Assembly (NCBI GenBank): GCA_040902335.1
Contig: JBBDXL010000179.1
Coordinates: 4,775 to 68,774, forward strand
Direction: 5' to 3'
DNA length: 64,000 bases
Source of the DNA: Burkholderiales bacterium
GTDB taxonomy: Bacteria; Pseudomonadota; Gammaproteobacteria; Burkholderiales; SG8-39
The notes beneath the pieces were generated by a model. That model had not been told where the DNA came from. It saw only the letters and a list, made by a program, of their open reading frames with translations, and made no database searches. Shown here piece after piece: positions 10,964 to 34,536 of this stretch. Each line of letters begins with the position of its first letter. The stretch's first letter is position 1. Position numbers and translations under genes: made by a program.

Positions 10964-11053
10964 GGAGAGATGGCAGAGTGGTCGATTGCGGCAGACTCGA
11001 AATCTGTTGTACGCGTAAGCGTACCGGGGGTTCGAATCCCTCTCTCTCCGCCA
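10964..11053 (+). tRNA. tRNA-Ser (anticodon CGA), type II with long variable arm, CCA encoded
   Basis: GGAGAGATGGCAGAGTGGTCGATTGCGGCAGACTCGAAATCTGTTGTACGCGTAAGCGTACCGGGGGTTCGAATCCCTCTCTCTCCGCCA. Acceptor stem GGAGAGA/TCTCTCC, anticodon loop CT-CGA-AA, T-loop TTCGAAT. Confidence 0.9.
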
Positions 11054-15133: not shown

Positions 15134-15408
15134 GTGAGCCTTGCGCCGATCTCCTTCTCGTACTCCGGAAAATAACGCGCGATCACGGGCAGCTCGAAGC
15201 TCGCCAGGATCGACGTGTTCGGCTCGCGCTCGAGCAGAAACCGGAAGCTCTCCTCGATGACGCGCTCGGGCGCCACCGCGGCGAGCCCGAGCTTCTCGAG
15301 ATAGCCCTCGGGTATCGTGACTTCGTGCGAGCTCGTCGAGCCCGCGCGCACTTCGACTCGCCAGCGGCGGGCGCCGGCGGGTGCGACCGTGATGGACGGC
15401 GTGCTCAC
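15130..15408 (-). CDS. Small conserved hypothetical protein (~92 aa)
   Basis: From GTG at 15408: VSTPSITVAPAGARRWRVEVRAGSTSSHEVTIPEGYLEKLGLAAVAPERVIEESFRFLLEREPNTSILASFELPVIARYFPEYEKEIGARL. 4-nt overlap with the downstream VOC gene. Its first ~11 codons lie inside the 195-bp repeat. Confidence 0.55.
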   Translation of the reverse strand: MSTPSITVAPAGARRWRVEVRAGSTSSHEVTIPEGYLEKLGLAAVAPERVIEESFRFLLEREPNTSILASFELPVIARYFPEYEKEIGARLT

Positions 15409-15571
15409 CGGCGGAATTCTGCAGCAAAACGGGATTAGCATGGCCGCGTGGAGTCTACGGTCCACAGCCTGTTCCCCACGCTGGTGTGGGAGGCGCGGCT
15501 CGCGCGCGAAGCGTGTGCGCCGCTAAACGACGCCATTCTGCGGCGACTCGCCGCGCTGCGCCGCGGCGCGC
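15377..15571 (+). repeat. Left copy of the ~195-bp direct repeat (partner 33835..34031)
   Basis: By-eye alignment gives roughly 85-90% identity, including GGCGGGTGCGACCGTGATG...GGATTAGCATGGCCGCGTGGAGTCTACGGTCCACAGCCT..TTCCCCAC.CTGGTGTGGGAGGCGCGGCTCGCGCG. Confidence 0.85.
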
Positions 15572-16465: not shown

Positions 16466-17408
16466 CGGTGACCGGCCGGCCGTCCAGGACTTCGCGGCAG
16501 CGCTCGAGCGTCTCCGCTTCCAGGCGCGCCATCGCCTCGTAGCTGTAGAAGCCGAGGTGCGGCGAGAGGATCACGTTGTCCATGGCGTAGAGCGGGCTCA
16601 GGGGATGCCCGGAGCGCGCGAGCGGCTCGCTCGAGAAGACATCGAGCGCTGCGCCCGCGATGCGCCTTTCCTGCAACGCGCGCAGCAGCGCCATCTCGTC
16701 CACGATCGCTCCCCGCGACACATTGACCAGGAACGCCGTCGGCTTCATGCAGCACAGCGCCCCCTCTCCGATCAGATGCCGCGTCTCGGGCGTGAGCACG
16801 CAGTGCACTGAGACGAAATCGCACTCCGCGATCATGGTCCGGAGGTCTGTTCGCAGATCGGCGTGCGCGCTCTGCGACACATGCGGGTCGCAGGCAAGCA
16901 CGCGCATCCGGAAGGCCGCGGCCATGCGCGCGAAGCTTGAGCCGATCCGCCCCAGCCCGACGAGACCGACCGTCTTGCCCGCGAGATCGCTCGCCAGCCA
17001 TTCTCGCGCCGGCCAGATCCAGCCTTCGCGGTCCATCGCGCGCTGGATCGGCTTCAGCTTTTTCGCGAGCGCGATGAGCAGCGCAAAGGCGCCTTCGGCG
17101 ACGGTTTCCTCGGCGTACTCGGGCACGTTGACCACCGGGATGCCGCGGCTGCGCGCGGCCGCGATGTCGATCGCGTCAATGCCGACGCCGTACTTGACGA
17201 TGCCCTTGAGCCTCGCCGCGGCCTCGATGGCGCGACGCGTGACCGGCGTGTAGCACATAAGCAGCAATTCGGCTTCGCGCAATTCGCGCAGCAGCTCGTC
17301 TTCGCTGACGCCGCCAGGCAGAAGCACGAGCTCGTGGCCAGCCGCGCGCAGCGCCGAGTCGACGCGCGGCACCTCGAGCTCGCGGTCGGTGCGAACTATC
17401 CTTGCCAC
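16407..17408 (-). CDS. D-isomer-specific 2-hydroxyacid dehydrogenase family protein
   Basis: 333 aa with [16 protein letters not shown] motif and a C-terminal ...NVILSPHLG catalytic His region. Confidence 0.9.
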
Positions 17409-19714
17409 GGTGCCTTGAGCGCGGCCTTCGCCGCCACCACGCGGCCCGAGACCTCGATCTCGTAGCGGCCGGCAAGAACGCCTTGCGCGGTCTCGGGCTT
17501 CGCCGAGTAAACGAATCCCATCGCCACCATGGTGCCGAGCGAGGCGCTGTAGCCCACCGAGGTCAGCTCGCCCACCGGCTTGTCGTCGCGCAGGATCGGC
17601 TCTCCGCCCCAGGCGAACAGTTCCGTCGCGGGGAAGGTGAACATCAGCAGCCGCTTCGCCAGCCCCGGCTTCGGGGGTTCGCGCTTGTCGCGCCTTACCG
17701 CAAACTCAAGCCCGGCCTCGTAAGGCGTGCAGTCCGGGGACAGCTCGGCGCCGAAGGCGCGCCGGCCGGCCTCGATGCGCAGTGCGTCGAGCGCGTAGTA
17801 GCCGCAATCCTTCAACCCGAGGTCGCTGCCGGCATCCCACAACCGGTCGTAGAGGCTCGCCGCATCCTCCACCGGCACATAGAGCTCCCAGCCCGGTCCG
17901 CCGGCATAGGATGCGGGCACGGCTCGCGCCTCGTCTTTCAATGTCAGTCTTGAAAGCAGAGTGCCGGCGTTCGGCCCGAGCACCGAGATCACCGACCAGG
18001 CGTCGCTCACGTCTTCGACGGTGACGTTTTCGTTGCTCCTTATTTGACGGCGAATCCACGCCGCATCGCGCACCGGCTGCGCCGAGCCCGTGACTATGAA
18101 GAACGCATCGTCGCCCCAGCGCTGCACGGTGACGTCGCTCTCGTAGCCGCCCTTGCGGTTGAGCATCGGTGTATAGGTAAGGCTGCCAATGCGGTTCGCG
18201 CAGACCCGCTCGAGCAGGGTCTGCGCGTCCCGCCCGCGCACGAGAAGCTTGCCGAACGAAGTCTGGTCGAACACGCCCGCCGCCCCGCGCACCGCGCGCT
18301 GCTCGGCAATGCAGGCGTCGAGCCAGTTCGGCCGGCCGAGGGTGTATTGAAGTTTTTCGCCAGTAACGGAAAACCAGTTGGCGCGTTCCCAGCCGAACTT
18401 TGATCCGAACAAGGCGCCTTTCGCCTTCAAGCGCCCGTAGAGCGGCGAGACGCGCAGCGGCCGGCCCGATTCCAGCTCGTGGCGCGGCCAGCGCATCGCG
18501 TAATGCAGGCCGAGCGTCTCCACGGTACGCTCCTTGAGCCATTTCGAATCCGCGGCGAACGCGCCGAAGCGCCGGATATCCACCTCGAACAGGTCCATCG
18601 GTGCCTCGCCGCCCGCGATCCACTCGGCAAGCAGCTTCCCCGCGCCGCCGGCGTTGGCGATCCCCGCGGAGTTGAAGCCGGCGGCGACGAAGTAGCTCCT
18701 GAGCTCCGGTGCCTCGCCCAGGATGAAGTTGCCGTCGGGGGTGAAGCTCTCCGGGCCGTTGAGCAGCAGCTTCACGCCCGCGGTCTCGAGCGCAGGCACG
18801 CGATGCATCGCCGCCTCCATCAACGGCTGGAACTGCTCCCAGTCCTCGGGCAGCAGCTGGAACTCGAACTTCTCCGGTATGCCGCCCATCCCCCAGGGCT
18901 TGGCCACCGGCTCGAAGCCGCCCATGACGAGACCGCCGACCTCCTCCTTGAAATAGATGAAGCCGTCGGGATCGCGCATCACCGGCAGCATCGGATGCAC
19001 GCCCGCGATCGGCCCGGTGACGAGGTAGAAGTGCTCGGCCGAGTGCAGCGGGATGTTGACGCCGCTTTGCGCGCCGAGCGCCCGCGCCCATTGCCCGGCG
19101 CAATTGACCAGTACCGAACATTGAACGTCACCCGCCGTGGTCGCTACACCCGTTAGGGCATTGTTATGCAAACGAACGCCCGTCACGCGCACGCCTTCGT
19201 GGATCTTCACGCCCAGATTGCGCGCCCCCTTGGCGAGGCTTTGCGCCAGGTCCGCCGGGTTTGCCTTGCCGTCGGCGGGAAACCAGAGCGCGCCCTGCAG
19301 GTCGTCGATGCGCAGCAGTGGCCATTTCTCCAGCGCTTCGCGCGGCGTGAGCAGCTCGACCTCGATGCCGAAGCTGCGCGCCATCGCCGCCTGGCGCCGG
19401 AACACGATCCAGCGCTCGGGCGTTCGCGCGACATTCACGCTGCCGCAGCGCTTCCATCCGGTGGCGAGGCCGGTTTCCTGCTCCAACGTCGCGTAAAGCT
19501 GCGTGCCGTACTGGCTCATGCGCGTCATCGAGCGGTTCGGCCGCATCTGGCCGACCAGCCCCGCCGCGTGCCAGGTGGTGCCGCAGGTGAGGCGGCCCTG
19601 GTCGAGGAGGACGATGTCGCGCTTGCCGAGCTTCGCCAGGTGGTAGGCGACGCTTATGCCGACGATGCCGCCGCCGATGACGACGATTGCGGCATGCGAA
19701 GGGAGCCCGGTCAT
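17396..19714 (-). CDS. Dimethylglycine/sarcosine-dehydrogenase-like fusion: FAD-dependent oxidoreductase (DAO) domain plus GcvT-type folate-binding aminomethyltransferase domain
   Basis: From ATG 19714: [31 protein letters not shown]...[12 protein letters not shown] (FAD dinucleotide fold), then ...[13 protein letters not shown]...[10 protein letters not shown]...[11 protein letters not shown] (GcvT-like). The part of track ORF 17396..20113 upstream of 19714 is junk. ATGA overlap with the EamA stop. Confidence 0.88.
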
Positions 19715-20568
19715 GCCTTGAGCGCGATCACGCCGGCCGCGACCGCGAGCGCACCGGCGATGCGGCGTGCGCCGAAGGGTTCCTTCAGCAGCCAGGCGCC
19801 GAGCAGCGCCGCGAAGATCACCGAGGTTTCGCGCAGCGCGGCAATCGCGGCGATCGGCGCGCGCGTCATCGCCCACAGGGCGATGCCGTAGGCCACCACC
19901 GAGCCGGCGCCACCCACGAGACCGCGCACCCAGTAGCGGCCCGCGTAATGCAAAAGCTCGCCGCGGCGCCCCCAGGCGACCATCAGCACGTAGGGAAAGC
20001 CGTCGAGAAAAAAGATCCACAGCGCGTAGCTCTCCGCACGACCCGAGAGCCTGACGCCGGCGCCGTCCACGAGGGTATAGGTAGCGATGATGACGGCATT
20101 CGCGAGCGCCCAAGCGGTCGCGCGGCGGTTATGCAGCCACGAGCCACCGCCGGCGAAGCTGATGCCGATGACGCCGGCGCTGATGAGCATGATCCCCGCC
20201 CACATCCACGCACCCGGGATCTCGCCCAGCATCAGCACCCCGAAACCGGCCACCAGAAGCGGGGCGATGCCGCGCATCAGAGGATAGCCGTGCGAGAGAT
20301 CTCCGGCGCGGTAGGTCGCCACCAGCGCGACGAAATAGCCGATATGGATCGCCACCGACGCCGCGAGGTAGGGCCAGCTCTCCGGCGCCGGGAGCGGAAC
20401 GAAAAGCAGAAACGGGACTGCAACCAGGGCGCCGCCGCCCACCACGCCGGCGAGGTCGAGCGCCGGGTCGCTGCTGCCCTTGATCATCGCGTTCCACGCT
20501 GCGTGGAGCAGCGCGGCGCCGAGCACGGCGAGCGTGACCGGAGCCGACAGCCCGGCCGCTTCGCTCAT
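19711..20568 (-). CDS. EamA/DMT-family transporter
   Basis: 285 aa, about 10 hydrophobic segments, two EamA repeats. Confidence 0.85.
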
Positions 20569-21875
20569 GCAGCGATCGCGGCCTCGACGATGTCGAGCGC
20601 GCGGTCGAGCTCTTCTTCCCGGATGATGAGCGGGGGCGCGAGCACCAGCACGCGACCCTGCCCGACCTTGAACGAGAGCCCCTGCGAGAGGCAGCGGTAC
20701 ATGACCTCCTCGGCCAGCGCCGCGTCGTTCAGCTCGATCCCGAGCAGCAGGCCGATGCCGCGCACGTCGGCGACTGCAGGATGCCTCATCTCCCGTAACC
20801 GGGCGAGGGCTCGTTCACCGAGGCGCGTTGCGCGTGCAAGCAGATCCTCGGATTCGACGACCTCGAGCGCGGCAAGTGCCGCGGCGCAGCCGACCGGGCT
20901 CTTCTCGTGCGTGTAGTGGCCGAGCGCGCGCTCGCCCGCGATATCGAGGCCGGCGCGCGCGACGAGCGCCGCCATCGGAAACACGCCCCCGCCGAGGCCT
21001 TTCCCCAGCACCACCATGTCGGGAACGATGCCGTAGCGCTCGAAAGCGAACATCGTTCCGGTACGGCCAAGGCCCACCGCGATCTCGTCGAGGACGAGAA
21101 GCGCGCCGTGACGGTCGCAGGCCGCGCGCAGCTTCTCGTAGTAATCGGGCGGCGGCACCTGCACGTCGGTCGAGCGCACCGTTTCCACCACCACCGCCGC
21201 GACGTCCTCCTCCTTGCCGAGCACGTACTCGACGTAGTCGGCGCAGCGCGCGTTGCAGGCGCCGTTGCAGCCGAAATGGCAGTTGCGCGGATCGCAGGGC
21301 TGCACGTGCTCGGTGCCGGACAGGAGCGGCCCGATGTCGCGGCGAAACAGAGCTTCACCGCCGAGCGAGATCGCGTCCAGGGAGGCGCCGTGGAACGAGT
21401 CCCACATCGAAAGCGTCTTGTGCCGGCCGGTGGCGAGGCGCGCGAGCTTGAGCGCCATGCCGATCGCCTCGGTGCCGCCGGGCGCGAATAGGACCTTCCC
21501 CAGATCGCCGGGCGCAAGGCGTGCGAGCCTGCGCGCAAGGGCGACGGCGGTCTCGTTGGTGTAGCGGCGCGGCGAGAAGGGAAGCGTATCGAGCGCGCGC
21601 TTCACCGCTTCGATCACGCGCGGATGGCCGTGGCCGACCTGGTGCACGCTGTTGCCGTGGAAATCCATCACCCGGCGGCCTTCCAGGTCCTCGAGCCAGA
21701 TTCCCGAGGCCGACTTGAGCGCGCTCAGGCAGGGCGTGGACAGCGACTGGTGCAGGAAATAGCGCGCGTCCTCGGCGAGCAGCGCCCGGGTGGCGGGACC
21801 GAGCTTGTCCGCTTGCCATTGTCCGCGCCGCGGCGAAAGATTGACGTCGCCCTCCGCGGACCGGTCCCTAGGCAT
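20565..21875 (-). CDS. Class-III (omega) PLP aminotransferase-fold enzyme; position suggests a PbfA-type enzyme
   Basis: 436 aa: ...DFHGNSVHQVGHGHPRV..., DEIAVGLGRTGTMFAFE.., GKGLGGG.FPMAA. It sits between phnX and the exporter in the AEP locus. The PbfA assignment is inference from context only. Confidence 0.85.
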   Translation of the reverse strand: MPRDRSAEGDVNLSPRRGQWQADKLGPATRALLAEDARYFLHQSLSTPCLSALKSASGIWLEDLEGRRVMDFHGNSVHQVGHGHPRVIEAVKRALDTLPFSPRRYTNETAVALARRLARLAPGDLGKVLFAPGGTEAIGMALKLARLATGRHKTLSMWDSFHGASLDAISLGGEALFRRDIGPLLSGTEHVQPCDPRNCHFGCNGACNARCADYVEYVLGKEEDVAAVVVETVRSTDVQVPPPDYYEKLRAACDRHGALLVLDEIAVGLGRTGTMFAFERYGIVPDMVVLGKGLGGGVFPMAALVARAGLDIAGERALGHYTHEKSPVGCAAALAALEVVESEDLLARATRLGERALARLREMRHPAVADVRGIGLLLGIELNDAALAEEVMYRCLSQGLSFKVGQGRVLVLAPPLIIREEELDRALDIVEAAIAA

Positions 21876-22242
21876 GCTTTTGGTTGGCCGTGCCGTTGAC
21901 GAATTCCTCGCGCAGGCGCGTCGGCGCGAGCGCCCCCGCCTGCTCGAGGATCGGGTAGGCGACCGAGCAGATGTGCGAGTTGATGCGCTTGAAGTCGTTG
22001 ATGATGTCGAGGTGAAGGGAGCTCGTCTCGATCGACTGCACCGTCTGCCAGGCGAGGCGGTTCAGGTGCGCGTCGCCGTACTGGCGCTCGAGGTTGCGGA
22101 ACTCGACCTTGGTCCCGAGCAGCATCTGCGCGCTCTTCAGGTCGCCGTTGAGGAATACGTTCAGCCCCAGGCGCAGGTTTGCGACCAGGCGCCCCCAAAC
22201 GAGCAGCGCGATTCCCGAGAGGATGCTGACCAGCGTGTGCAT
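21868..22242 (-). pseudogene. Na/Pi-cotransporter (YjbB/NptA-like) C-terminal PhoU-like fragment, 124 aa
   Basis: ..SIETSSLHLDIINDFKRINSHICSVAYPILE.. is the characteristic C-terminal region of ~550-aa Na/Pi cotransporter family proteins. The whole membrane domain is absent. It may still be translated as a stand-alone PhoU-like protein. Confidence 0.55.
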
Positions 22243-22261: not shown

Positions 22262-23092
22262 TCAGGCCGCTTCCCCGCGTCGGATGCGCGCCTGAATGTC
22301 GTCGATGCAGGGCATGATATCCGCGATGGTATCCACTACATAGTGTGCACCGCATTGCCCCATGCGTGTGCGGGCGCGCTCGCGCTTCACCCGCTGCTCG
22401 GCTTCCGCTAACGCCTGCCACTGCTTGAGCGTCAATCCCACCTCGTTGCCGCTGACCGCGAGCCCGATGGTCCACATTCCGGCGTTCAGGCCCTCCTCGA
22501 CGCCGGGAACGGTGTCGTCGATCTTGACGCAGGCCTGCACCGTGCTCACGCGGAGATTGATCACGTTCTGCAGGCACATATAGGGATAGGGGCGCCCGGC
22601 GGGCACGTCGGCCGCGCAGACCGTGGCGTCCGGCTGGTAGCCCTGGCGCTTCGCGTCTGCGAGATTGATCTTCATCATTTCGGTGAGATAGCCGGTGGTC
22701 GAGCCGATCTTGATGCCGCGCGCGCGCAGCTCCGCGACCGCCTCCAGCGTGCCCGGAATGAGGGCCGAATAGTTGGACAGGCACTCGAGCTGCAGCGGCA
22801 CGAAATCGGCGAACATCGCGCTCACGTCGTCGTCGTCAGGTGTCCGCCCGTGCGCCTCCTGCCAGCGCCGGCGCACCGAGTCGAGCTCGGTGATGCGCTG
22901 GATGTGCACGCGCTTGTGCGCTCCCATGGGCGCGCGCGCCTCCTCGATGGTGATCGGCACCTGCTTGCGCCGGAATACCTCCACGAACACCACTGCCGGC
23001 GCCATGCAGCCGAAGTCCATGGTGGTTCCGGCCCAGTCGAGCAGCACCGCCTCGATCGGCCCGCGGTAGCTGCGCTTATAGCTGAAGTTCAT
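22262..23092 (-). CDS. phnX: Phosphonoacetaldehyde hydrolase (phosphonatase)
   Basis: 276 aa. AVLLDWAGTTMDFGCMAP is the HAD motif I with the phosphonatase-type context. Strong SD GGGGAGGG. Confidence 0.92.
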   Translation of the reverse strand: MNFSYKRSYRGPIEAVLLDWAGTTMDFGCMAPAVVFVEVFRRKQVPITIEEARAPMGAHKRVHIQRITELDSVRRRWQEAHGRTPDDDDVSAMFADFVPLQLECLSNYSALIPGTLEAVAELRARGIKIGSTTGYLTEMMKINLADAKRQGYQPDATVCAADVPAGRPYPYMCLQNVINLRVSTVQACVKIDDTVPGVEEGLNAGMWTIGLAVSGNEVGLTLKQWQALAEAEQRVKRERARTRMGQCGAHYVVDTIADIMPCIDDIQARIRRGEAA

Positions 23093-24222: not shown

Positions 24223-25326
24223 ATGGTCATTGAACGCGACACGTCGCCGGGAGCGCCGTACCTGCGGATCGCGGGCCTCACGAAGACGTTCGGCGCCTTC
24301 ACGGCGCTGAAGGACATCTCGCTCGAGGTCTATCAGAGCGAATTCATCTGTTGCCTCGGGCCGTCGGGCTGCGGCAAGACCACATTGCTGCGCTGTATCG
24401 CCGGGCTCGACATCCAGACGAGCGGCCGCGTCGAGCAGGCGGGCCGGGACGTCTCGGGGCTGCCGCCCTCGGAGCGCGATTTCGGCATCGTGTTCCAGTC
24501 CTACGCCTTGTTTCCGAACTTGAGCGTCTTCAAGAACATTGCCTACGGGCTCGAGAACCGCAGGCTCGGCAAGGCCGAGGTCAGGCGGCGGGTGAGAGAG
24601 TTGCTGGAGCTGGTCGGTATGCCGGAGGAGGTGCAGAAGTACCCGGCGCAGCTCTCCGGTGGACAGCAGCAGCGCGTGGCGCTCGTGCGCGCGCTCGCGC
24701 TCTCGCCGGGGCTGCTGTTGCTCGACGAGCCGTTGTCGGCGCTGGATGCGCGGGTGCGGGTGCACCTGCGCCACGAGGTGCGAGGGCTGCAAAGGCGCCT
24801 TGGCGTGACCACGATCATGGTCACCCATGACCAGGAAGAGGCGCTGACGATGGCCGACCGCATCGTGGTGATGAACCGGGGTGTGATCGAGCAGGTCGGT
24901 AGCCCGATCGAGATCTACCGCGAACCGGCGACCGCGTTCGTGGCTGATTTCGTCGGCACGATGAATTTCATGCCTGCCGTCGTTGCCGGCCCGAACAGGG
25001 TCCGGCTGGGCCGGATCGAGCTCGAATGTGCAGGCGGCCTCGACGGGGCGATCCCGGGGGCGCGGGTCACGCTCGCCCTGCGCCCGGAGGACGTGGCCGT
25101 GCGCAACGTGGCGAGCGACGGGGTCAACGGCTTCGCGGCAAGGATCGTGGACATGGAATTTCTCGGCTCCTTCTACCGCGTCCAACTCGCGGCCGACGAC
25201 ATCGACAAGAGCCGAATCACGGCCGATCTCTCGATCAACGATGTGCGCGATCTGTCGCTCGCGCGGGACATGACCATCGCGGTCGCCCTGCCGCGGGAAC
25301 GGATTCGCGTTTTCGCCGGCGGCTAG
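24223..25326 (+). CDS. AEP-type ABC transporter ATP-binding protein (PhnT2-like)
   Basis: From ATG 24223: Walker A GPSGCGKTT, signature LSGGQQQRVAL, Walker B LLLLDEP. Confidence 0.9.
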   Translation: MVIERDTSPGAPYLRIAGLTKTFGAFTALKDISLEVYQSEFICCLGPSGCGKTTLLRCIAGLDIQTSGRVEQAGRDVSGLPPSERDFGIVFQSYALFPNLSVFKNIAYGLENRRLGKAEVRRRVRELLELVGMPEEVQKYPAQLSGGQQQRVALVRALALSPGLLLLDEPLSALDARVRVHLRHEVRGLQRRLGVTTIMVTHDQEEALTMADRIVVMNRGVIEQVGSPIEIYREPATAFVADFVGTMNFMPAVVAGPNRVRLGRIELECAGGLDGAIPGARVTLALRPEDVAVRNVASDGVNGFAARIVDMEFLGSFYRVQLAADDIDKSRITADLSINDVRDLSLARDMTIAVALPRERIRVFAGG

Positions 25327-25337
25327 GCGCCGCACGC

Positions 25338-27044
25338 ATGGCCAACGCCACAGCCGCTCGAGCCGTTCTACCCAGGATTCGCGCCTCCCTGAGCCTCGAC
25401 GACTGGGTCATGCGCGCGGCCGTGGTGGTCCTCGGCCTGTGGCTGCTGGCCGCAGTCATCGTGCCCCTCTACGTGCTGCTGTCCAAGAGTTTTCAGGCGA
25501 AGGGCGGCAGCTTCATCGGTCTTGCGAACTACGTCGAGTATTTCTCCACGCCGGCGCTGTTTTACTCCATCTACAACAGCCTGACGATCGCCGTCATCAG
25601 TACGGTGATCACGATCGCACTGGCGTTCGTTTTCGCCTATGCCCTGACCCGCAGCTGCATGCCGGGCAAGGCGTTCTTCCGCGGCGCCGCCTTCGTCCCG
25701 ATCCTCGCGCCCTCGCTGCTCCCGGGGATCTCCTTCGTCTATCTCTTCGGCAATCAGGGCATGATCAAGGAGCTGCTGATGGGGCACTCGATCTACGGTC
25801 CCATCGGCATCGTCATGGGCGAGGTGTTCTGGACCTTTCCGCATGCGCTGATCATCATCACCACGGCGCTGTCGCTCTCCGATTCCCGGTTGTACGAGGC
25901 GGCCGTGGCTTTGCGCGCGAGCAGGCTTCGGGCCTTCTTCACGGTGACTTTGCCGGGGGCCAAGTACGGTCTGCTCAGCGCCTGCTCGGTGGTGTTCACG
26001 CTGGTGATCACCGACTTCGGCGTGCCGAAGGTGATCGGCGGCCAGTACAACGTGCTCGCCGTCGACGTCTACAAGCAGGTGATCGGCCAGCAAAACTTCG
26101 AGATGGGAGCGGTCGTGGGCATGGTGCTGCTGCTGCCGGCCGTCATCGCCTTCATCGCCGACCGGCTGGTGCAGCGCAAGCAGATTGCGCTGCTATCCGC
26201 GCGCGCCGTGCCCTACGAGCCAAAGCCGAACAAGGCGCTCGACAGCTCCATGTTCATCTTCTGCACCGTCGTCAGCATCCTGATCCTCGGCATCCTCGCG
26301 GCCGCGGCCTTTGCCTCGCTGGTCAAGCTCTGGCCGTACAACCTGACGCTCTCGCTCAAGCACTACCAGTTCGACTTGATGGACGGCGGCAGCTGGGGTG
26401 CGTACTACAACAGTCTCAAGATGGCGCTCTGGACGGCGGTGGTGGGAACGGCCGTGATCTTCAGCGGCGCCTATCTCGTCGAGAAGACCAAGGGGTTCGG
26501 CCGTACACGGTCGTTCGTGCAGTTCATGGCGATCATACCGCTCGCCGTGCCCGGCATCGTGCTCGGACTTTCCTACATCTTCTTCTTCAACGATCCGGCG
26601 AACCCCTTTCACTTCATCTACGGAACGATGGCGATCCTCGTGATCTGCACCATCGTGCACTTCTATACCGTCGCCCATCTCACGGCGGTCACGGCATTGA
26701 AGCAGCTGGATCCGGAGTTCGAGGCGGTCTCGGCCTCGCTCAAGGTGCCGTTCTACAAGACCTTCGCCCGCGTCACCGTGCCCGTGTGCGTACCGGCGAT
26801 CCTGAGCATCTCCATCTATCTGTTCCTCAACGCCATGACCACGGTGTCGGCCGTGGTCTTTCTGTACTCGCCGGACACGGCGCTCGCCTCGGTAGCCGTG
26901 CTGAACATGGACGACGCGGGCGACATCGCCCCGGCGGCGGCCATGGCGATGATGATCGTCTATACCTCGGCCGGCGTGCGTGTGCTGCACGCGCTCGCCA
27001 CGCGCGGCATCGCCCGCAGGACGCAGCGCTGGCGCACGCGCTAG
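25338..27044 (+). CDS. AEP-type ABC transporter fused double permease (PhnU2-like)
   Basis: From ATG 25338: 568 aa with two tandem permease modules, about 12 TM segments. Confidence 0.88.
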
Positions 27045-27063
27045 CTTCAGGGAGCCCCGTGAA

Positions 27064-28203
27064 ATGAAACAACCCATCCTGCTCACCCCCGGCCCGCTCA
27101 CCACCTCGAGCGCGACCAAGCTCGCCATGATGCGCGACTGGGGCTCGCGCGATTCGGGCTTCATCGAGCTCAACCGTCTGGTCCGCGACATGCTGTTGGA
27201 TGTCGTTCATGGAAAGGAAATTCACGTCTGCGTGCCGCTCCAGGGCAGCGGCACCTTCGCCGTCGAGGCGGCGCTCGGCACGCTGGTGCCGCGCGAGGGC
27301 CATGTGCTGGTGCCGCTCAACGGCGCCTACTGCAGGCGCATCGCGCGCATCTGCGCCATCCTCGGCCGGCGCACCACTACTCTCGATTTTCAGGAGGATG
27401 AACCTGTGAAAGCCGCGGACATCGACGCCATCCTGTCCCGCGACCCCTCGATCACGCACGTTGCCCTGGTGCACTGCGAGACCAGCACCGGGGTTCTCAA
27501 TCCTCTAGAAGAGATCGCCGAAAGTGTCGCCCGCCACAAACGCAGCTTGATCGTCGACGCCATGAGCTCGTTCGCGGCGCTCGAGATCGACGCGCGCAAG
27601 ACCCCGTTCGACGCGCTGGTGGCGGCCTCCGGCAAATGCCTCGAAGGCCCGCCGGGAATGGGCTTCGCGCTTGCCCGCCGCGCGGCGCTCGAGAAATGCG
27701 CCGGAAATTCGCCCTCGCTGGTGCTCGACCTCCACGACCAGTGGGTCAACATGGAGAAGACCGCGCAGTGGCGCTTTACGCCGCCGACCGTGGTGCTCGC
27801 CGCGCTGCACGCCGCGCTCGAGCAGTTCGTCGCCGAAGGCGGCCAGCCCGCGCGCCTCGCGCGCTACCGCAGGAACTGCGAGGTGCTGATCGAGGGCATG
27901 ACGCGTCTCGGCTTCAAGCCGTTCCTCGAGCCGCGCCACCAGGCGCCGGTCATCGTGACGTTCCACGCCCCCGCCGATCCGAGCTACGATTTCCAGCGCT
28001 TCTACGACCGCGTGCGCGAGAAGGGCTTCGTGCTCTACCCCGGAAAGCTCACCCAGGTCGACACGCTGCGCGTGGGCTGCATCGGCGCGATCGACGAGAA
28101 CGTCCTGCGCGCCGCGGTGCACGCGATCGCCGACACGCTCGCCGAGCAGGGCATCCGGCTCCATGAATCTGGTTCTGTTCGATCTCGACAATACGCTCCT
28201 TAG
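27064..28203 (+). CDS. phnW: 2-aminoethylphosphonate--pyruvate transaminase
   Basis: From ATG 27064: [15 protein letters not shown]... class-V aminotransferase with the characteristic PhnW N-terminus (..MRDWGSRD..) and ..[13 protein letters not shown] (PLP Lys). Confidence 0.92.
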
Positions 28204-28819
28204 CGGCGACACCGATTTCGAGTGGCTCGCTTTCCTTGTCGAGCAAGGGGTTCTTTCCAGTTCCGACCAGGAAGCAAATGCCGAAATGGATCACCGCTAC
28301 CGCAGCGGCGACGCCGGCGCGCTCGAGTATGTACGCTTCTACCTGGGCTTCTATGCGCCCCACGGCATGGCTGCGCTCCTCGCCTGGCGCGACAAGTTCT
28401 TCCGCACCAGAATCGAGCGGCGAATTTCGCGCGCGGCGCGAGCGCTGGTGGAGTCGCATCGCAACGACCTCGTCGCGATCGTCACCGCGACCAACCGCTT
28501 CCTCACCGAGCCGATCGCCGCGGCGTTCGGCGTCGAGCACCTCATCGCCACCGAGCCCGAGATGGTCGCGGGCCGGTTCACGGGCGAGGTCGCCGGGACG
28601 CCGTGCATGCGCGAGGGCAAGATCGAGCGGCTCGAAGCGTGGCTTGCCTCCCGCGGCAGCTCGCTCGCCGATTACGCCGAGACCTGGTTCTACAGCGATT
28701 CGATCAACGACCTGCCGCTGCTCGAGCGCGTGACGCACCCGGTGGCCGTGGATGCCGACTCAAAGCTCGAGCGGCTCGCGCGCGAGCGGGGGTGGACGAT
28801 ATTGCACCTGCCCCGCTGA
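28163..28819 (+). CDS. HAD-IB family hydrolase/phosphatase (SerB-like)
   Basis: 218 aa with motif [10 protein letters not shown] and C-terminal ..[11 protein letters not shown]. 41-nt overlap with phnW. Confidence 0.85.
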
Positions 28820-29115: not shown

Positions 29116-30483
29116 ATGAGTGAAACGGAAGCTGGGCCGAGGGGAATGCTTCAGCCCGAGCAGCTGCGTACGCTGGTCGGGAAAGGCGAGATCGAAACCG
29201 TCGTCGTCGGCTTCACCGACCACTACGGCCGCCTGCTGGGCAAGCGCTTCGACGCCGAGTTTTTCGTCGAGGAGATCTGCAGCCAGGGGGCGCACGCCTG
29301 CGACTATCTGCTGACGGTCGACATGGAGATGGATCCGGTGCCGGGGTATCGCTTCGCCAACTGGGAGCTCGGCTACGGCGACTTTCATCTGGTGCCCGAC
29401 CTGGGCACGCTGCGCCTCGCGAGCTGGCTCGACAAAAGCGCGCTGGTGCTCTGCGACGTGAAAAGTGAAAAGATGCACGAGTATGTGGCCGTGGCGCCGC
29501 GCTCGATCCTGCGCCGGCAAATCGACGCCGCAAGCGCGCGGGGATACACAGCCTTCGCCGCCTCCGAGCTCGAGCACTACCTCTTCCGCACGAGCTACCG
29601 CGAGGCGGCCCAGCGCGACTACCGTGACCTCGAGCCCGCGGGCTGGTACCTGGAGGACTATCATATCCTGCAGGGCACGCGCACCGAAAGCTTCCACGCC
29701 GCGGCGCGCCGCCACCTGAAGCTCTCGGGCGTGCCGGTCGAGAACTCGAAAGGAGAATGGGGCGCGGGGCAGCACGAGCTGAACGTGCGCTATGCCAGCG
29801 TCCTGGAAATGGCCGACCGCCACGTGGTGTTCAAGCAATGCCTCAAGGAGCTCGCGGAGGCGGCAGGCATGAGCCTCACCTTCATGGCCAAGTTCGCCTC
29901 CGACCGGGCAGGCTCGAGCTGCCACATCCACTTCAGCCTCCGGCGCGATGGGAAGAACGTCTTTGAGAAAGGCGGCGACCTTTTCCGCTGGTTCCTCGCG
30001 GGCTGGATGGCACACGTGCCCGACGTCATGGTGTTCTACGCGCCGACCGTCAATTCGTACAAGCGCTACGTGGACGCCTCCTGGGCGCCGACGCGGCTCG
30101 CCTGGAGCTACGACAACCGCACGGCGGGCTTCCGCGTCGTGGGCGACGGCCCGGGCCTGCGCATCGAATGCCGCATTCCCGGCGCCGACTGCAATCCCTA
30201 CCTCGCTTTCTCCGCCGCGCTCGCCTCGGGCCTTGACGGCATCGCCGGCCGGCTCGAGCCGCCCGCATGCTTCGTCGGCGACGTCTACGCGGCGAAAAGC
30301 CTGCCGCGGGTGCCGCATACGCTCAGCGAAGCAGCAGATCTTTTTTCAAACAGTGATTTTACGAAGCGCGCGTTCGGCGCGGAGGTGGTGGAGCACTACA
30401 CGCATTTCTTTCGCACCGAAGCAGCCGCCTTCGACAAGGCGGTCACCGATTGGGAGCGCAAGCGCTACTTCGAAAGAATATGA
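29116..30483 (+). CDS. Glutamine-synthetase-family enzyme, gamma-glutamyl-amine synthetase type (PuuA/GlnA3/GlnA4-like)
   Basis: 455 aa: ..EWGAGQHELNVRY.. and ..NSYKRY..WAPT...WSYDNRTAGFRV.. GS catalytic motifs. No AT-adenylylation context. Confidence 0.88.
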   Translation: MSETEAGPRGMLQPEQLRTLVGKGEIETVVVGFTDHYGRLLGKRFDAEFFVEEICSQGAHACDYLLTVDMEMDPVPGYRFANWELGYGDFHLVPDLGTLRLASWLDKSALVLCDVKSEKMHEYVAVAPRSILRRQIDAASARGYTAFAASELEHYLFRTSYREAAQRDYRDLEPAGWYLEDYHILQGTRTESFHAAARRHLKLSGVPVENSKGEWGAGQHELNVRYASVLEMADRHVVFKQCLKELAEAAGMSLTFMAKFASDRAGSSCHIHFSLRRDGKNVFEKGGDLFRWFLAGWMAHVPDVMVFYAPTVNSYKRYVDASWAPTRLAWSYDNRTAGFRVVGDGPGLRIECRIPGADCNPYLAFSAALASGLDGIAGRLEPPACFVGDVYAAKSLPRVPHTLSEAADLFSNSDFTKRAFGAEVVEHYTHFFRTEAAAFDKAVTDWERKRYFERI

Positions 30484-31253
30484 GACTCGAACACAAGGTT
30501 GCCCTGATCACCGGCGCCGGCAGCGGCATCGGCCGGCAGACCGCACTGCTTTTTGCCAAGGAAGGCGCGGCGGTGCTCGCGGTCGACGTGAACGAGCAGG
30601 CCGCCGCCGAAACCGTCGTGCTGATCAGGCAGGCGGGCGGCCGCGCCGTCGCCTGCCACGCCGACGTGTCGAAAGCGCGCGACTGCCAGCAGATGGTCGC
30701 CGCGGTCGAGAAGGAGTTCGGCCGGCTCGACGTGCTGTTCAACAACGCCGGCATCATGCACGCCACGGACGACGACGCCGTCTCCACCGACGAGAGCGTC
30801 TGGGACCTGACGCTCGACATCAACGCCAAGGGCGTCTTCCTCGGCTGCAAGTACGGCATCCCGGCGCTGCGCCGCGCAGGCGGCGGCTCGGTCATCAACA
30901 CCGCTTCGTTCGTGGCGCGGCTCGGCGCCGCCACGCCGCAAATCGCCTACACCGCGAGCAAGGGCGCCGTGCTCGCGATGACCCGCGAGCTCGCGGTCGT
31001 CCACGCCCGCCAGGGCATCCGCGTCAACGCGCTCTGCCCGGGGCCGCTGCGCACCGAGCTTCTCATGAGCTACCTCGACACCGAAGAGAAGCGCCAGCGG
31101 CGCCTGGTGCACGTGCCGATGGGGCGCTTCGGCGAGGCGCAGGAAATCGCCTACGCCGCCCTCTACCTCGCCTCCGACGAATCCTCCTTCGTCACCGGCA
31201 CCGAGTTCCTGGTCGACGGCGGCCTCACCGCGGCCTACGTCACGCCGGAATGA
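30480..31253 (+). CDS. SDR-family dehydrogenase
   Basis: From ATG 30480 (ATGA overlap with the GS-like stop): MRLEHKVALITGAGSGIGR..., NNAG, YTASKGAV catalytic YxxxK. Confidence 0.9.
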   Translation: MRLEHKVALITGAGSGIGRQTALLFAKEGAAVLAVDVNEQAAAETVVLIRQAGGRAVACHADVSKARDCQQMVAAVEKEFGRLDVLFNNAGIMHATDDDAVSTDESVWDLTLDINAKGVFLGCKYGIPALRRAGGGSVINTASFVARLGAATPQIAYTASKGAVLAMTRELAVVHARQGIRVNALCPGPLRTELLMSYLDTEEKRQRRLVHVPMGRFGEAQEIAYAALYLASDESSFVTGTEFLVDGGLTAAYVTPE

Positions 31254-31518
31254 GATATCTCGAAGACTTTGCGGTGGGTCAGACCTTCGGCTCCGGCCGG
31301 CTGCGCGTCGACAAACAGCGGGTCATGGCCTTCGCCGCCGAATTCGCCCCGGCGACGAGTTGCACCTCGACATCGAAGTGATGGAGGTGCGGCCGTCGAA
31401 GTCGCGCCCGGAGCAGGGCTTGATCAAGGTCAAGACCACGACGCTCAATCAGGACGGCGAGGCGGTACAGGTCACCATCGGGAATCTGGTCGTGCCATGC
31501 CGCCCGGTGAAAGAATGA
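31250..31518 (+). pseudogene. MaoC-like (R)-hydratase/dehydratase gene with internal deletion and frameshift
   Basis: The N-terminal MRYLEDFAVGQTFGSGRLRVDKQRVMAFAAEF.. runs into a stop at 31381. The C-terminal ..GDELHLDIEVMEVRPSKSRPEQGLIKVKTTTLNQDGEAVQVTIGNLVVPCRPVKE* continues in another frame. The central hot-dog core (I estimate ~70 aa) is missing. ATGA overlaps are kept at both ends. Confidence 0.7.
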
Positions 31519-32882
31519 TCAGCCCGGTCGACGGCTCGGTTTATGTACAGCGCGAGCCGCCCTCCGACGCGGCGATCGAAGCTGCGCTCGCCAAAGCGGC
31601 AGATTCTCAACAAATTTGGAAACGAGTGCCGGTCGCCGAGCGCGCCGCGATCTGCTGCCGCATGGCCGACTGGTGCGTCGAGCGGGCCGACGAGCTTGGC
31701 AGAGAACTGACCTGGCAGATCGGCCGGCCGATCGCGCACAGCCCCCTGGAGCTGCGCCGCGGTTTCCATGAGCGCGCTCAGCACATGTGCGCCATCGCCG
31801 AAGAGGCGTTGGGAGATCTGAATTCAGAGCCCAAACCCGGATTTCGCCGCTTCATCCGCCGCGAGCCGCTCGGCGTGGTGCTGGTGCTCGCGCCCTGGAA
31901 TTACCCCTGGCTCACTTCAGTCAATGCGGTGGTGCCCGCGCTGCTAGCCGGCAACACGGTGCTCCTGAAGATGGCGGCGCAGACACCCCTTGTCGCCGAG
32001 CGCTACCGCCAGGCTTTCGACGCCGCCGGGCTGCCGGAAGGCGCATTCCAGTTCCTGCATCTCGATCACGCTCAGGTGGCGCGCGTCATCGCAGACTCCC
32101 GCATCGGCTTTGTTGCCTTTACCGGCTCGGTCGGCGGCGGGCATGCCGTGCAGCGCGCCGCGGCCGGGCGCTTCATCGCCACCGGGCTCGAGCTCGGCGG
32201 CAAGGATCCCGCCTACGTCCGGGCCGACGCGCCGCTCGAGGCGACCGTCGAAAACCTGGTCGATGGCGCCTACTTCAACTCAGGGCAGTCCTGTTGTGCG
32301 GTGGAACGCATTTACGTCCACAAGAATGTTCTTAAGAACTTCGTGGAAGGCTTCGTCGAGCTCACCAGGCAGTACCGGCTCGGCAATCCGCTCGATCCGC
32401 AAACCACGCTCGGGCCGCTGGTGCGCAAGGAAGCCGCCGACAACGTGCGCGCGCAGATCCGCGACGCGCTGGACAAAGGGGCCAGGGCGCTTCTCGACAC
32501 GAGAGGCGATAAAGCGGGCACCCCGTATCTTCCCCCGCAGGTGCTGGTCGATGTCCATCACGGCATGGCGGTGATGGCCGATGAGACCTTCGGGCCGGTG
32601 GTCGGTATCCAGCGCGTCGAGAACGACGAGGAAGCGATCGCGCTCATGAACGACAGCCGCTACGGGTTGACGGCCTCGATCTGGACCTGCAACGTCGAGG
32701 CCGCCATCCGGATCGGCGATCGCGTCGAGACCGGCACCTGGTTCATGAATCGCTGCGACTACCTCGATCCTGCGCTCGCCTGGACCGGAGTCAAAGACTC
32801 GGGGCGCGGCTGCACGCTTTCCCGGCTGGGGCTCGAAACTTTCACCCGACCGAAGTCGTTTCACCTGCGGCTGAGCCTGTGA
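31515..32882 (+). CDS. NAD(P)-dependent aldehyde dehydrogenase
   Basis: From ATG 31515: MISPVDGSVYVQ... with ..LELGGKDPAYV.. and ..FNSGQSCCAVERIYV.. (catalytic Glu and Cys motifs). Confidence 0.9.
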   Translation: MISPVDGSVYVQREPPSDAAIEAALAKAADSQQIWKRVPVAERAAICCRMADWCVERADELGRELTWQIGRPIAHSPLELRRGFHERAQHMCAIAEEALGDLNSEPKPGFRRFIRREPLGVVLVLAPWNYPWLTSVNAVVPALLAGNTVLLKMAAQTPLVAERYRQAFDAAGLPEGAFQFLHLDHAQVARVIADSRIGFVAFTGSVGGGHAVQRAAAGRFIATGLELGGKDPAYVRADAPLEATVENLVDGAYFNSGQSCCAVERIYVHKNVLKNFVEGFVELTRQYRLGNPLDPQTTLGPLVRKEAADNVRAQIRDALDKGARALLDTRGDKAGTPYLPPQVLVDVHHGMAVMADETFGPVVGIQRVENDEEAIALMNDSRYGLTASIWTCNVEAAIRIGDRVETGTWFMNRCDYLDPALAWTGVKDSGRGCTLSRLGLETFTRPKSFHLRLSL

Positions 32883-32903
32883 TAGATTGCCTGCGCCCTA
32901 ACG

Positions 32904-33045
32904 CCTCGCGTGGGAGAGACCGACTCCGGCCGGCGCCGAAGGGGTAACGCGCCCCGCAAAACTCTCAGGCAATAGGACCGCGCGAGGCTGGGCACTCTGG
33001 AGAGAAGGCCCGAGCGGCCTCGCCGAAGGCTACAAGCTGAAAAAA
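32904..33045 (+). promoter_or_regulatory. Glycine riboswitch: one complete aptamer (32904..32987) followed by a partial second aptamer (about 32991..33045)
   Basis: Aptamer 1 has P1 CCTCGCG/CGCGAGG, GGGAGAG, GCGCCGAAGGGG-TAACGCG-CCCC, and AAACTCTCAGGCAATAGGAC. The second unit has CACTCTGGAGAG, hairpin AGGCC-CGAG-CGGCCT and CGCCGAAGG but lacks the 3' CTCAGGCA..GGAC half. The ATG of the downstream gene is at 33053. Confidence 0.78.
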
Positions 33046-33052
33046 CCGGGCT

Positions 33053-33763
33053 ATGCACATCGGCCTGCTTGAATGCGATAACGTCGCCGGACGCTTTTCC
33101 CATATCGAGGGCGGCTATCGCGAGATGTTCGCCGCGCTGCTGCCCGGCGCGCGATTCAGCTATTACGAGGCGTGGAAGAACGAGCTGCCCGCGAGCGCGG
33201 ACGCCTGCGGCGCATGGGTGTGCAGCGGATCGCAGTATTCGGTCTACGACAAGATGGAATGGGTCGGCGCCCTGTCGCGGCTCGTGCAGACGTTGCATGA
33301 AGAAAAGCGACCCTACGTCGGCATCTGCTTCGGCCACCAGATGCTGGCGCAGGCGCTGGGCGGCGAGGTGGCGCGCGCCGCGCGGGGATGGGGAGTGGGC
33401 GTCCACGACGTGCAGGTCCTGCGGCAGGAACCGTGGATGCAGCCGCCCCAATCACATTTCCGCATCCATCACATGCACGCGGATCAGGTGCAGCGGCTGC
33501 CGCCGGACAGCGTGGTGCTTGGAAGCAGCGCCCACTGCGAGGTGGCGATGTTCCGCGTCGGCGACTCGATGCTCGGCATCGAAGGGCATCCGGAATTCAC
33601 CGCGGCATTCAGCGAGGCGCTGATCCGGGCCCGCGCCGACCGTATCGGCGTCGAGCGCGTGCAGGCCGGGCTCGCCAGCCTTGGCCAGCCAACGGACGGC
33701 GCCGTTGTCGGGCGATGGATCGCGCAGTTCCTGGAACGGAAGGATGCGGGATCGTCGGTCTGA
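33053..33763 (+). CDS. Class-I glutamine amidotransferase-like protein (GATase1; gamma-glutamyl hydrolase candidate)
   Basis: 236 aa: ..PYVGICFGHQMLAQALGG.. (nucleophile Cys elbow) and ..GIEGHPEF.. (His/Glu). Confidence 0.85.
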   Translation: MHIGLLECDNVAGRFSHIEGGYREMFAALLPGARFSYYEAWKNELPASADACGAWVCSGSQYSVYDKMEWVGALSRLVQTLHEEKRPYVGICFGHQMLAQALGGEVARAARGWGVGVHDVQVLRQEPWMQPPQSHFRIHHMHADQVQRLPPDSVVLGSSAHCEVAMFRVGDSMLGIEGHPEFTAAFSEALIRARADRIGVERVQAGLASLGQPTDGAVVGRWIAQFLERKDAGSSV

Positions 33764-33798: not shown

Positions 33799-33867
33799 CT
33801 ACGCGGTCGAATTCACGGTGCGCAATCCGGCGAGGGCGGGTGCGACCGTGATGAAGCGGGCGCTCAT
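33799..33867 (-). pseudogene. 22-codon remnant of the small hypothetical gene found intact at 15130..15408
   Basis: MSARFITVAPALAGLRTVNSTA* compared with VSTPSITVAPAGARRWRV... at 15408. It lies partly in the right copy of the direct repeat. Confidence 0.6.
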
Positions 33868-34031
33868 CGGCGGGATTTTGCGGCAAAACCGGATTAGCAT
33901 GGCCGCGTGGAGTCTACGGTCCACAGCCTCTTCCCCACACTGGTGTGGGAGGCGCGGCTCGCGCGTGAAGCGTATGCGCCGCTGAACGACGCCATTTTAC
34001 GCCGGCTCGCCGCGCGGCGCCGCGGCGCGCC
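33835..34031 (+). repeat. Right copy of the ~195-bp direct repeat (partner 15377..15571)
   Basis: See the left copy. Same orientation, 18.46 kb apart. Confidence 0.85.
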
Positions 34032-34536
34032 GGACCCGCCGGCGGGCGCCGGCTGGCAGTCGGGCGTGGCGCTCCACCGCCACGAGGAGCTCGCGCCGCT
34101 CCTCGCCGCGATCGACCGGCTGGCGAAAGGGGTGCTCGAGTTCCTGCGCATCGGCGAGTGCGAGGCGCCGCGCATCACCGGCTGCTGGGCGAACGTGAAC
34201 GCGCCCGGCGCCGCGCACCGCATGCACGCGCACCCGAACAACTTCCTCTCGGGGGTGTACTACGTGCGGGTGCCGGCGGGGGCGGACACCATCAATTTTC
34301 ACGACCCGCGGCCGCAGGCGGCGGTGCTGCGACCGCCCGTCACCGAGCTCGCCGCCCAGAACACCGACCAGGTGGTGGTGCGCGTCGCCGAGGGCACGCT
34401 GCTCCTGTTCCCGGCCTGGCTCGCGCATTCGGTGGATGCCAACGCGAGCGGCGAGACGCGCGTCAGCGTCAGCTTCAACCTGATGTTCCCGCGCTTTGCC
34501 GAGACCCTCGCGCAGCCGCTGTGGGGTGAGGACTAG
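33907..34536 (+). CDS. TIGR02466-like putative 2OG-Fe(II) oxygenase family protein
   Basis: 209 aa, GTG start. ..GCWANVNAPGAAHRMHAHPNNFLSGVYYV...LFPAWLAHSV...SFNL is typical of this family. Confidence 0.78.
   Translation: MESTVHSLFPTLVWEARLAREAYAPLNDAILRRLAARRRGAPDPPAGAGWQSGVALHRHEELAPLLAAIDRLAKGVLEFLRIGECEAPRITGCWANVNAPGAAHRMHAHPNNFLSGVYYVRVPAGADTINFHDPRPQAAVLRPPVTELAAQNTDQVVVRVAEGTLLLFPAWLAHSVDANASGETRVSVSFNLMFPRFAETLAQPLWGED

Follow-up and report, generated by a model that had tools for sequence, protein, structure and literature searches.

Tight monomer binding in tandem and singlet glycine riboswitches depends on A-minor contacts that run from the P3 bulges of one unit to the top of P1 of the other (PMC5066625). 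In type-1 singlets with a ghost aptamer (Ruff et al. 2016, PMC5066625; Torgerson et al. 2018, PMC6239177), one 5' aptamer of the ligand-competent type is followed by a non-binding vestige of aptamer 2, and the P0 helix is kept. The ghost is a stem-loop that keeps the P1 helix and no other aptamer element; it docks to the aptamer and overlaps the expression platform. Without the ghost P1, a type-1 singlet binds glycine more than 400-fold more weakly (PMC5066625). Crum et al. 2019 (PMC6944388) proposed a model of tandem degradation in which one aptamer is lost by gradual decay that preserves the regions of tertiary contact; aptamer 1 is the unit kept in GCV-context singlets. On the metabolic side, a GS-like ligase, a short-chain dehydrogenase (SDR), an aldehyde dehydrogenase (ALDH) and an amidohydrolase make up the ethanolamine gamma-glutamylation route that was proposed for S. 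coelicolor SCO1610-1615 with GlnA4 (PMC6529630), and a gamma-glutamylation cluster of Phaeobacter, MED193_10026-10056, was found to be induced (PMC10132767). The last step of this route is predicted to release glutamate and glycine (PMC6529630, PMC10132767). No riboswitch has been reported for either cluster, and our literature search found no paper that ties a glycine riboswitch to gamma-glutamylation clusters.

The locus described here, in a 64,000-nucleotide stretch of DNA from a Burkholderiales bacterium (the window), joins these two subjects (Table 1). Like the ghost-bearing singlets it has one 5' aptamer of the ligand-competent type, a non-binding vestige of aptamer 2 and P0, but the P1' stem of the vestige has been lost and there is no platform. 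As in the model of Crum et al., one aptamer is lost and aptamer 1 is kept; the loss, however, would be due to one truncating rearrangement that changed the regulated gene too. We give a probability of roughly 0.6 to the statement, taken as a whole, that a tandem leader was truncated by a recent rearrangement, was joined to a gene for a class-I glutamine amidotransferase-like protein (GATase) and is now a passive promoter and 5' UTR rather than a glycine switch. The origin of the element, taken alone, is firmer: comparison with its relatives indicates that it is almost certainly a truncated gcv-type tandem.

Table 1. Coordinates of the features at and around the riboswitch remnant (positions in the window)
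Feature	Position	Strand	Basis or remark
Aminoethylphosphonate-type (2-aminoethylphosphonate) ABC permease	25026-27044	+	
PhnW-type transaminase	26980-28203	+	
HAD-IB hydrolase	28163-28819	+	
GS-like ligase, Gln-synt_C	29116-30483	+	Pfam
SDR, adh_short	30450-31253	+	Pfam
ALDH, 455 aa, third gene of the GS-like/SDR/ALDH/GATase operon	31515-32882	+	Pfam Aldedh, E 8e-118; stop codon 32880-32882
TGaTAGATT, putative promoter -10	32880-32888	+	hexamer TAGATT 32883-32888
ALDH-GATase spacer, 170 nt	32883-33052	+	
Block homologous to the 5' 54% of gcvHPT-type tandem leaders	32883-33029	+	nhmmer, pairwise identity, alignment
P0 5' strand GCCC, leader-linker helix	32895-32898	+	pairs with GGGC 32990-32993
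Glycine aptamer 1, complete	32901-32990	+	RF00504, 65.6 bits
P1 of aptamer 1	32904-32911 CCTCGCG(T) / 32980-32987 (G)CGCGAGG	+	pairs checked
GGGAGAG of aptamer 1	32912-32918	+	seen in sequence
P2 of aptamer 1	32920-32933	+	pairs checked
CGCCGAAGG of aptamer 1	32934-32942	+	seen in sequence
P3 of aptamer 1	32935-32970	+	pairs checked
P3b hairpin GGGG-TAACGCG-CCCC of aptamer 1		+	seen in sequence
CTCTCAGGCAATAGGAC of aptamer 1	32962-32978	+	seen in sequence
CACTCTGGAGAG of second unit	32993-33004	+	seen in sequence
Truncated aptamer 2	32994-33029	+	identical to the 5' part of aptamer 2 in complete tandems except for the P2' loop
P1' 5' strand CUCUGG	32995-33000	+	second unit
P2' hairpin GGCC-CGAGC-GGCC	33007-33019	+	second unit
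CGCCGAAGG of second unit	33021-33029	+	seen in sequence
Filler CTACAAGCTGAAAAAACCGGGCT	33030-33052	+	23 nt, 48% G+C, A6 tract
Stand-alone class-I GATase-like gene, 236 aa	33053-33763	+	Pfam GATase / Peptidase_C26

Aptamer 1 is complete. The match to RF00504 (Rfam) covers the full model (1-94) on the plus strand with E 2e-11 and a score that is well above the gathering score of 32; it is the sole riboswitch match within the 64-kb window. The conserved core, GGAGAG / CGCCGAAGG / CUCAGGCA..GGAC, is present together with helices P1, P2 and P3, which pair as in RF00504 with one A-C mismatch in P2 (32923/32930). An earlier, sequence-only reading of this DNA had listed the hallmark elements of aptamer 1 and had named the covariance-model search as a check; the elements are all present, and the search bore the assignment out. 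The leader-linker helix P0 of the tandems (the kink-turn region) is also found by base pairing: GCCC/GGGC occurs in the sequence and in the predicted minimum free energy (MFE) fold, and it is invariant across the tandem family. Aptamer 1 scores between 62.8 and 72.1 bits in this family (Rfam), a range that includes the window, and at columns of 95% conservation or more the window allele shows no private substitution, against 0 to 4 in family members. Single-sequence folding gave z-scores of -0.27 and -1.11, which carry little information for so G+C-rich an RNA, and RNAalifold on the close tandem family found too little sequence variation for covariation.

The second unit is a different matter. 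It has CUCUGGAGAG, the P2' hairpin and CGCCGAAGG, and retains only these elements, the P1' 5' strand and GGAGAG among them; P3', CUCAGGCAAACGGAC and the P1' 3' strand CAGAG are missing. No CTCAGGCA..GGAC occurs between this unit and the ATG at 33053. A permissive Rfam scan of 301 nt (32850-33150) gave no RF00504 match to the second unit even at E<=10, so that it is not aptamer-like to the covariance model, and the window does not hold two complete aptamers. That the second unit is cut short before the start codon had already been seen from the letters, and this description holds. The same reading had offered, as one of two explanations, a singlet with a ghost aptamer. A single complete aptamer before a degenerate second unit, with the P0 leader-linker pairing kept, is what a canonical type-1 singlet with a 3' ghost would look like at first sight, but here the definition of the ghost is inverted: the P1' helix cannot form, and GGAGAG, P2' and CGCCGAAGG, which a ghost should lack, are unchanged from the tandem. 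When CACUCUGGA, the P1' strand, was searched for a partner within 33005-33120, the best duplex had -6.9 kcal/mol against a mean of -8.0 kcal/mol for shuffled sequences, and 76% of the shuffles did at least as well. Hence there is no 3' P1-like stem-loop for A-minor docking, and no expression platform overlaps a ghost stem. We consider a ghost-bearing singlet very improbable.

In one complete tandem (L092), the P1' 5' strand can pair with CAGAG, with the Shine-Dalgarno (SD) region and with codons 3-5 of gcvH. Of the predicted partners of CUCUGG, the best is a GCCAGAG that is conserved in these codons (CTG CCA GAG) of L092 and other tandem loci, at -10.3 kcal/mol versus -7.0 kcal/mol for the SD region. 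The native OFF state of the tandem leaders may, by this folding model, sequester the early coding region besides the SD.

The source of the truncated element can be traced through its relatives. Metagenome contigs were scanned for the 3' end of aptamer 1 plus linker, AGGAC-N8-14-GGGCACTCTGGAGAG, which yielded 42 loci, 38 of them glycine riboswitches; about 14 of these loci are 92-96% identical to window 32883-33029 in pairwise comparison. An nhmmer profile built from 13 tandem leaders has 276 positions, from the -10 element to gcvH codon 10. Positions 2-149 of this profile match the same block with E 5e-41, and the match ends exactly at CGCCGAAGG. Past this point the complete tandems continue with the P3' hairpin, AAUYUCUCAGGCAAACGGAC, the P1' 3' strand CAGAG, a platform ending in GCCAGGAGGCGCC and a GTG start; aptamer 2 was detected at 50-53 bits in three tandem loci (Rfam). 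The genes 3' of the tandems are gcvH, then gcvP and gcvT (Pfam GCV_H, GDC-P and GCV_T; gene table of L133). The window thus shares the -10, leader, P0, P1, aptamer 1, linker GGGCACUCUGGAGAG, P2' and CGCCGAAGG with the gcvHPT tandem leaders (L133, L092, L096, L131 and others), and in both the element comes directly after an orthologous ALDH gene. Unlike them, it is without profile positions 150-276, that is, P3', CUCAGGCAAACGGAC, CAGAG, the platform with the SD AGGAGG and gcvHPT, and it has the GATase gene where its relatives have gcvHPT. The second explanation offered from the sequence, a decayed tandem left by a rearrangement, was right in the tandem and the rearrangement; decay does not describe a block of 147 nt that is truncated but still 92-96% identical to its relatives, with no private changes at conserved columns.

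Synteny suggests where the two halves come from. An ALDH orthologue with 75-89% amino acid identity lies directly upstream of the tandem in L091, L092, L096, L101, L103, L107, L117, L122, L127, L131 and L133, and in L095 it lies upstream with a PIN gene between, which makes at least 12 related betaproteobacterial loci. By this comparison, the position directly after ALDH is the ancestral or normal one for the family. The intercistronic position had been called atypical; the site is in fact usual for this gcvHPT leader, which carries a putative conserved promoter there, and only the downstream gene is out of the ordinary. The closest ALDH homologues (82-84%) share one neighbourhood, with the Lhr helicase on one side and BamE-like, GreA and CarB on the other. 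Between these flanks L133 has GS-SDR-..-ALDH-RS-gcvHPT with a tandem riboswitch of 248 nt (L133:4132-13905), and L134-136 and L139 have GS-SDR-..-ALDH-GATase (L134:5457-10081). The window proteins are about as close to one cassette type as to the other (GS 85-87%, SDR 84-87%, ALDH 82-84%). L133-L139 show only these two parental arrangements, and no further hybrid was found among the closest ALDH homologues. The window, in a different chromosomal context, combines a left part of the gcv type with a right part of the GATase type in the order ALDH, 147 nt of riboswitch, 23-nt filler, GATase.

The ALDH-GATase pair itself is conserved across Beta- and Gammaproteobacteria and Acidimicrobiia. The two genes abut in every relative checked, and in the closest the stop codon of ALDH and the start codon of the GATase overlap or touch (TAATG, TGATG); L134, L135, L136, L137 and L139 have the GATase after ALDH without a spacer. 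A motif search of 80 representative genome loci, which reached 6 kb to each side of a GATase homologue, found no glycine aptamer, and the Rfam covariance model found none at five loci of GATase relatives (L001-L005). Covariation was sought through riboswitches upstream of GATase homologues, of which the same 80 loci had none. Comparison of the ALDH gene with GATase-type and gcv-type relatives (60-nt and 150-nt windows, 25 informative sites) gave no clear recombination breakpoint. The event could have been a replacement of gcvHPT by the GATase gene or the insertion of a leader fragment into the ALDH-GATase overlap.

The ALDH operon locus appears to be an insertion hotspot. PIN or MazE-PIN toxin-antitoxin genes are inserted variously (L095:3290-3685 on the minus strand, L135:7345-7991, L136:7048-7694 and L139:350-754); in L095 the insertion separates ALDH from the riboswitch, and in L135 and L136 it separates SDR from ALDH. 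In L091, L101 and L133 the inserted gene encodes a trypsin-PDZ protease and runs in the opposite direction.

Ten independently assembled metagenome contigs (JGI, ENA and Logan; several samples) encode an identical GATase. Each of the ten that reaches the spacer has the same 170 nt including the 23-nt filler, at 97-99.6% identity and with SNPs of its own. No GATase relative between 70% and 100% identity was found among 5.8 billion clusters. Because ten contigs carry the same spacer, we regard the junction as real and as specific to one species-level lineage. The source organism is apparently uncultured, and a metagenome assembly could mis-join the two related types of cassette; that the riboswitch-GATase junction is such an artefact is nevertheless hardly credible, given the same junction and filler in ten contigs from different samples, sources and assemblers. 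The number of segregating sites, 3 of 170 in the RNA versus 9 of 881 at four-fold sites, does not differ significantly (p = 0.42), in a comparison of very low power. Two of the three RNA sites are non-conservative. At 32967 the window has A; nine other contigs (among L081-L090) cover the site, and 8 of them have G. A32967 lies in CUCAGGCA, and all 36 family members share it; the A32967G allele reads CUCGGG, and the change lowers the score from 65.6 to 58.8 bits, a cost of 6.8. This adenine is presumably in the internal P3 bubble that, in crystal structures, forms the glycine pocket. Contig L083 has A32985C instead, which breaks the P1 pair U32906-A32985. The population alleles score 58.8 and 60.6 bits against RF00504.

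The filler stands in place of the remainder of aptamer 2, the expression platform and gcvHPT. A search for its source found nothing convincing in any locus; the one 10-mer that it has in common with the P3' loop of L103 is not significant (fraction of shuffles at or above the observed value, 0.15). Scattered 11-mers that resemble the filler elsewhere were dismissed as chance. The start codon of the GATase is the same as in the orthologues whose start overlaps the ALDH stop, and no SD sequence precedes the ATG at 33053. The window likewise has no SD-sequestering stem and no platform overlapping a P1' 3' strand. The failure to see a terminator or an SD-sequestering stem by eye was reproduced, neither being found by a consensus scan or in the predicted folds. 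Positions 33040-33046 are predicted to be unpaired, with the A6 tract open, in all three folding states tested. For the start region (-13..+3), the predicted unpaired fraction is 0.68 with aptamer 1 formed, 0.63 with a competing helix formed and 0.67 without constraint. This competing helix of 14 bp, 32979-32993 / 33008-33025, has -75.3 kcal/mol versus -78.1 kcal/mol for the MFE fold and competes with P1 and P0. It could in principle act as a switch, as judged by the folding model. The complementarity between P1 and the second unit on which it depends is inherited, as it is present in intact tandems too.

The promoter may have been inherited as well. Family members keep TAGATT (TAGTAT in two loci) and, 17-18 nt before it, TTGC(A/G)N regardless of the upstream gene, from which we infer that the two hexamers form the sigma-70 promoter for the gcv operon. 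This putative promoter was missed by the consensus scan, which flagged no terminator-like or sigma-70 consensus site in the 170-nt spacer. In the ALDH-linked loci (e.g., L092, L117, L131 and L133) the -35, TTGCGG, is within the last ALDH codons, His-Leu-Arg, about 20-45 nt before the riboswitch. The spacing from -35 to -10 is 6 nt shorter in the window (32860-32888) and in L096, and in both the -10 looks extended because the ALDH stop codon gives a TG one base before TAGATT. The L096 junction is identical to that of the window (ctgtga before TAGATT; ctgtgaTAGATT; ctg tga before TAGATTGCC).

These observations are best accommodated by a truncated relic. The block 32883-33029 corresponds to the 5' 147 nt of a tandem leader: it holds the -10, the P0 5' strand, aptamer 1, the linker and 36 nt from the start of aptamer 2. 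After the same ALDH gene in sister Betaproteobacteria, such a leader would control gcvH-gcvP-gcvT. A rearrangement would have stripped the leader of the 3' third of aptamer 2 and of its SD-containing platform, along with the gcv genes, and would have joined the retained leader through the 23-nt filler to the native ATG of the GATase; as the event is proposed to be recent, the retained part would still be intact. The remnant is probably passive and may provide a promoter (-10 TAGATT with TG) and a 5' UTR or spacer for the GATase, which would be translated from an unstructured A-rich stretch in place of stop-start coupling. It is most likely not a working glycine switch because both A-minor contacts between the aptamers require P1 or P3 of aptamer 2, which have been lost, and because no helix couples aptamer folding to the start site. 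A residual response to glycine is accordingly unlikely, if well short of implausible. Among the points against a relic is that the retained part is as intact as in functional family members (no private changes, 65.6 bits). In the flanking genes the window is about 20% away from even its nearest sampled relatives, and at that distance an element so well preserved must either have been rearranged very recently or have stayed under selection. Were any date on this long branch open to the rearrangement, such preservation would be unlikely under neutrality and would favour ongoing constraint.

The main alternative is that aptamer 1 has been co-opted as a singlet that binds glycine without a ghost and controls the GATase through competition of the helix 32979-32993/33008-33025 with P1 and P0. 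According to the folding model, formation of P1 would free 33011-33026 to pair with codons 2-6 (33055-33071) and would lower initiation, giving product feedback by glycine. Aptamer 1 is intact, the alternative helix comes close in energy to the MFE fold, a longer hairpin is predicted around the AUG once the aptamer has formed, and the 7-mer GCCUCGC occurs in both P1 and the second unit. The element is, moreover, fixed in ten contigs from several samples, and the GATase, the predicted gamma-glutamylglycine hydrolase, is a plausible glycine-sensing target because the last step of the pathway is predicted to release glycine. Against this, both docking partners (P1' and P3') are absent, and deletions of this kind reduce binding more than 400-fold; the predicted accessibility of -13..+3 hardly differs between states; the complementarity that would drive the switch did not evolve here; and the commonest allele mutates an invariant nucleotide while another breaks P1. 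On balance, we think such co-option doubtful. Slightly more doubtful still is the corresponding evolutionary scenario, in which one rearrangement rewired aptamer 1 of a gcv leader onto a hydrolase gene and produced a newborn, ghost-less singlet with glycine feedback through P1 and anti-P1 pairing in the modelled fold.

Under the truncated-relic reading, the locus gives nucleotide-level breakpoints for a tandem riboswitch that loses an aptamer and changes its downstream gene in a single rearrangement. A truncating rearrangement is a route other than the one proposed so far, gradual decay from tandem to singlet. The locus also calls for caution in annotation, as a covariance-model match well above threshold does not by itself imply a working switch or a regulated downstream gene. 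If the remnant does respond to glycine, aptamer 1 can work without a ghost aptamer and would be a natural minimal glycine sensor; if the newborn-switch scenario is true, it would be a natural example of a riboswitch that changed both its target gene and its architecture in a single step.

The flanking genes agree with the earlier identification of an ALDH and a GATase1 gene (Pfam). In the PDB the GATase is most similar to gamma-glutamyl peptidase 1 (E 7e-20), and by sequence similarity its product is probably the gamma-glutamyl-amide hydrolase of the pathway. The GS-like ligase, SDR, ALDH and gamma-glutamyl amidohydrolase thus occur together, as in a gamma-glutamylation operon, and their order is conserved across phyla. 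The S. coelicolor and Phaeobacter clusters have the same enzyme set (ligase, short-chain dehydrogenase, aldehyde dehydrogenase and amidohydrolase/GATase), with glutamate and glycine as predicted products; unlike them, the window operon has a riboswitch remnant and adjoins a 2-aminoethylphosphonate-type ABC transporter and PhnW. By analogy with the published clusters, and because relatives link the operon to gcvHPT and a glycine riboswitch, we infer that the substrate of the window operon is ethanolamine and the product glycine. The riboswitch-gcvHPT unit behind ALDH in sister Betaproteobacteria, where the gcv operon is physically joined to the GS-like/SDR/ALDH operon, supports glycine as the product of the pathway and is independent genomic support for a route that ends in this amino acid.

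The neighbourhood in the window is one of small-amine and glycine-derivative catabolism. A 910-aa protein with DAO, FAO_M, GCV_T and GCV_T_C domains, resembling sarcosine/dimethylglycine dehydrogenases, is encoded at 17396-20128 on the minus strand, beside a class-III aminotransferase (20565-22061), a HAD hydrolase (22262-23092) and the aminoethylphosphonate-type ABC transporter. This DAO-GCV_T fusion protein is the sole related match in the 64-kb window, from which gcvH and gcvP are absent. A tRNA of 87 nt with a long variable arm lies at 10964-11050 on the plus strand (RF00005, 57.7 bits). Finally, about 200 nt at 33830-34030, which take in some 45 codons at the start of a 2OG-Fe(II) oxygenase gene (33907-34536) and the sequence before it, are duplicated at 15370-15571 with about 90% identity. 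The copy ends in a stop and is therefore a truncated duplicate, a further sign of segmental rearrangement in this genome.
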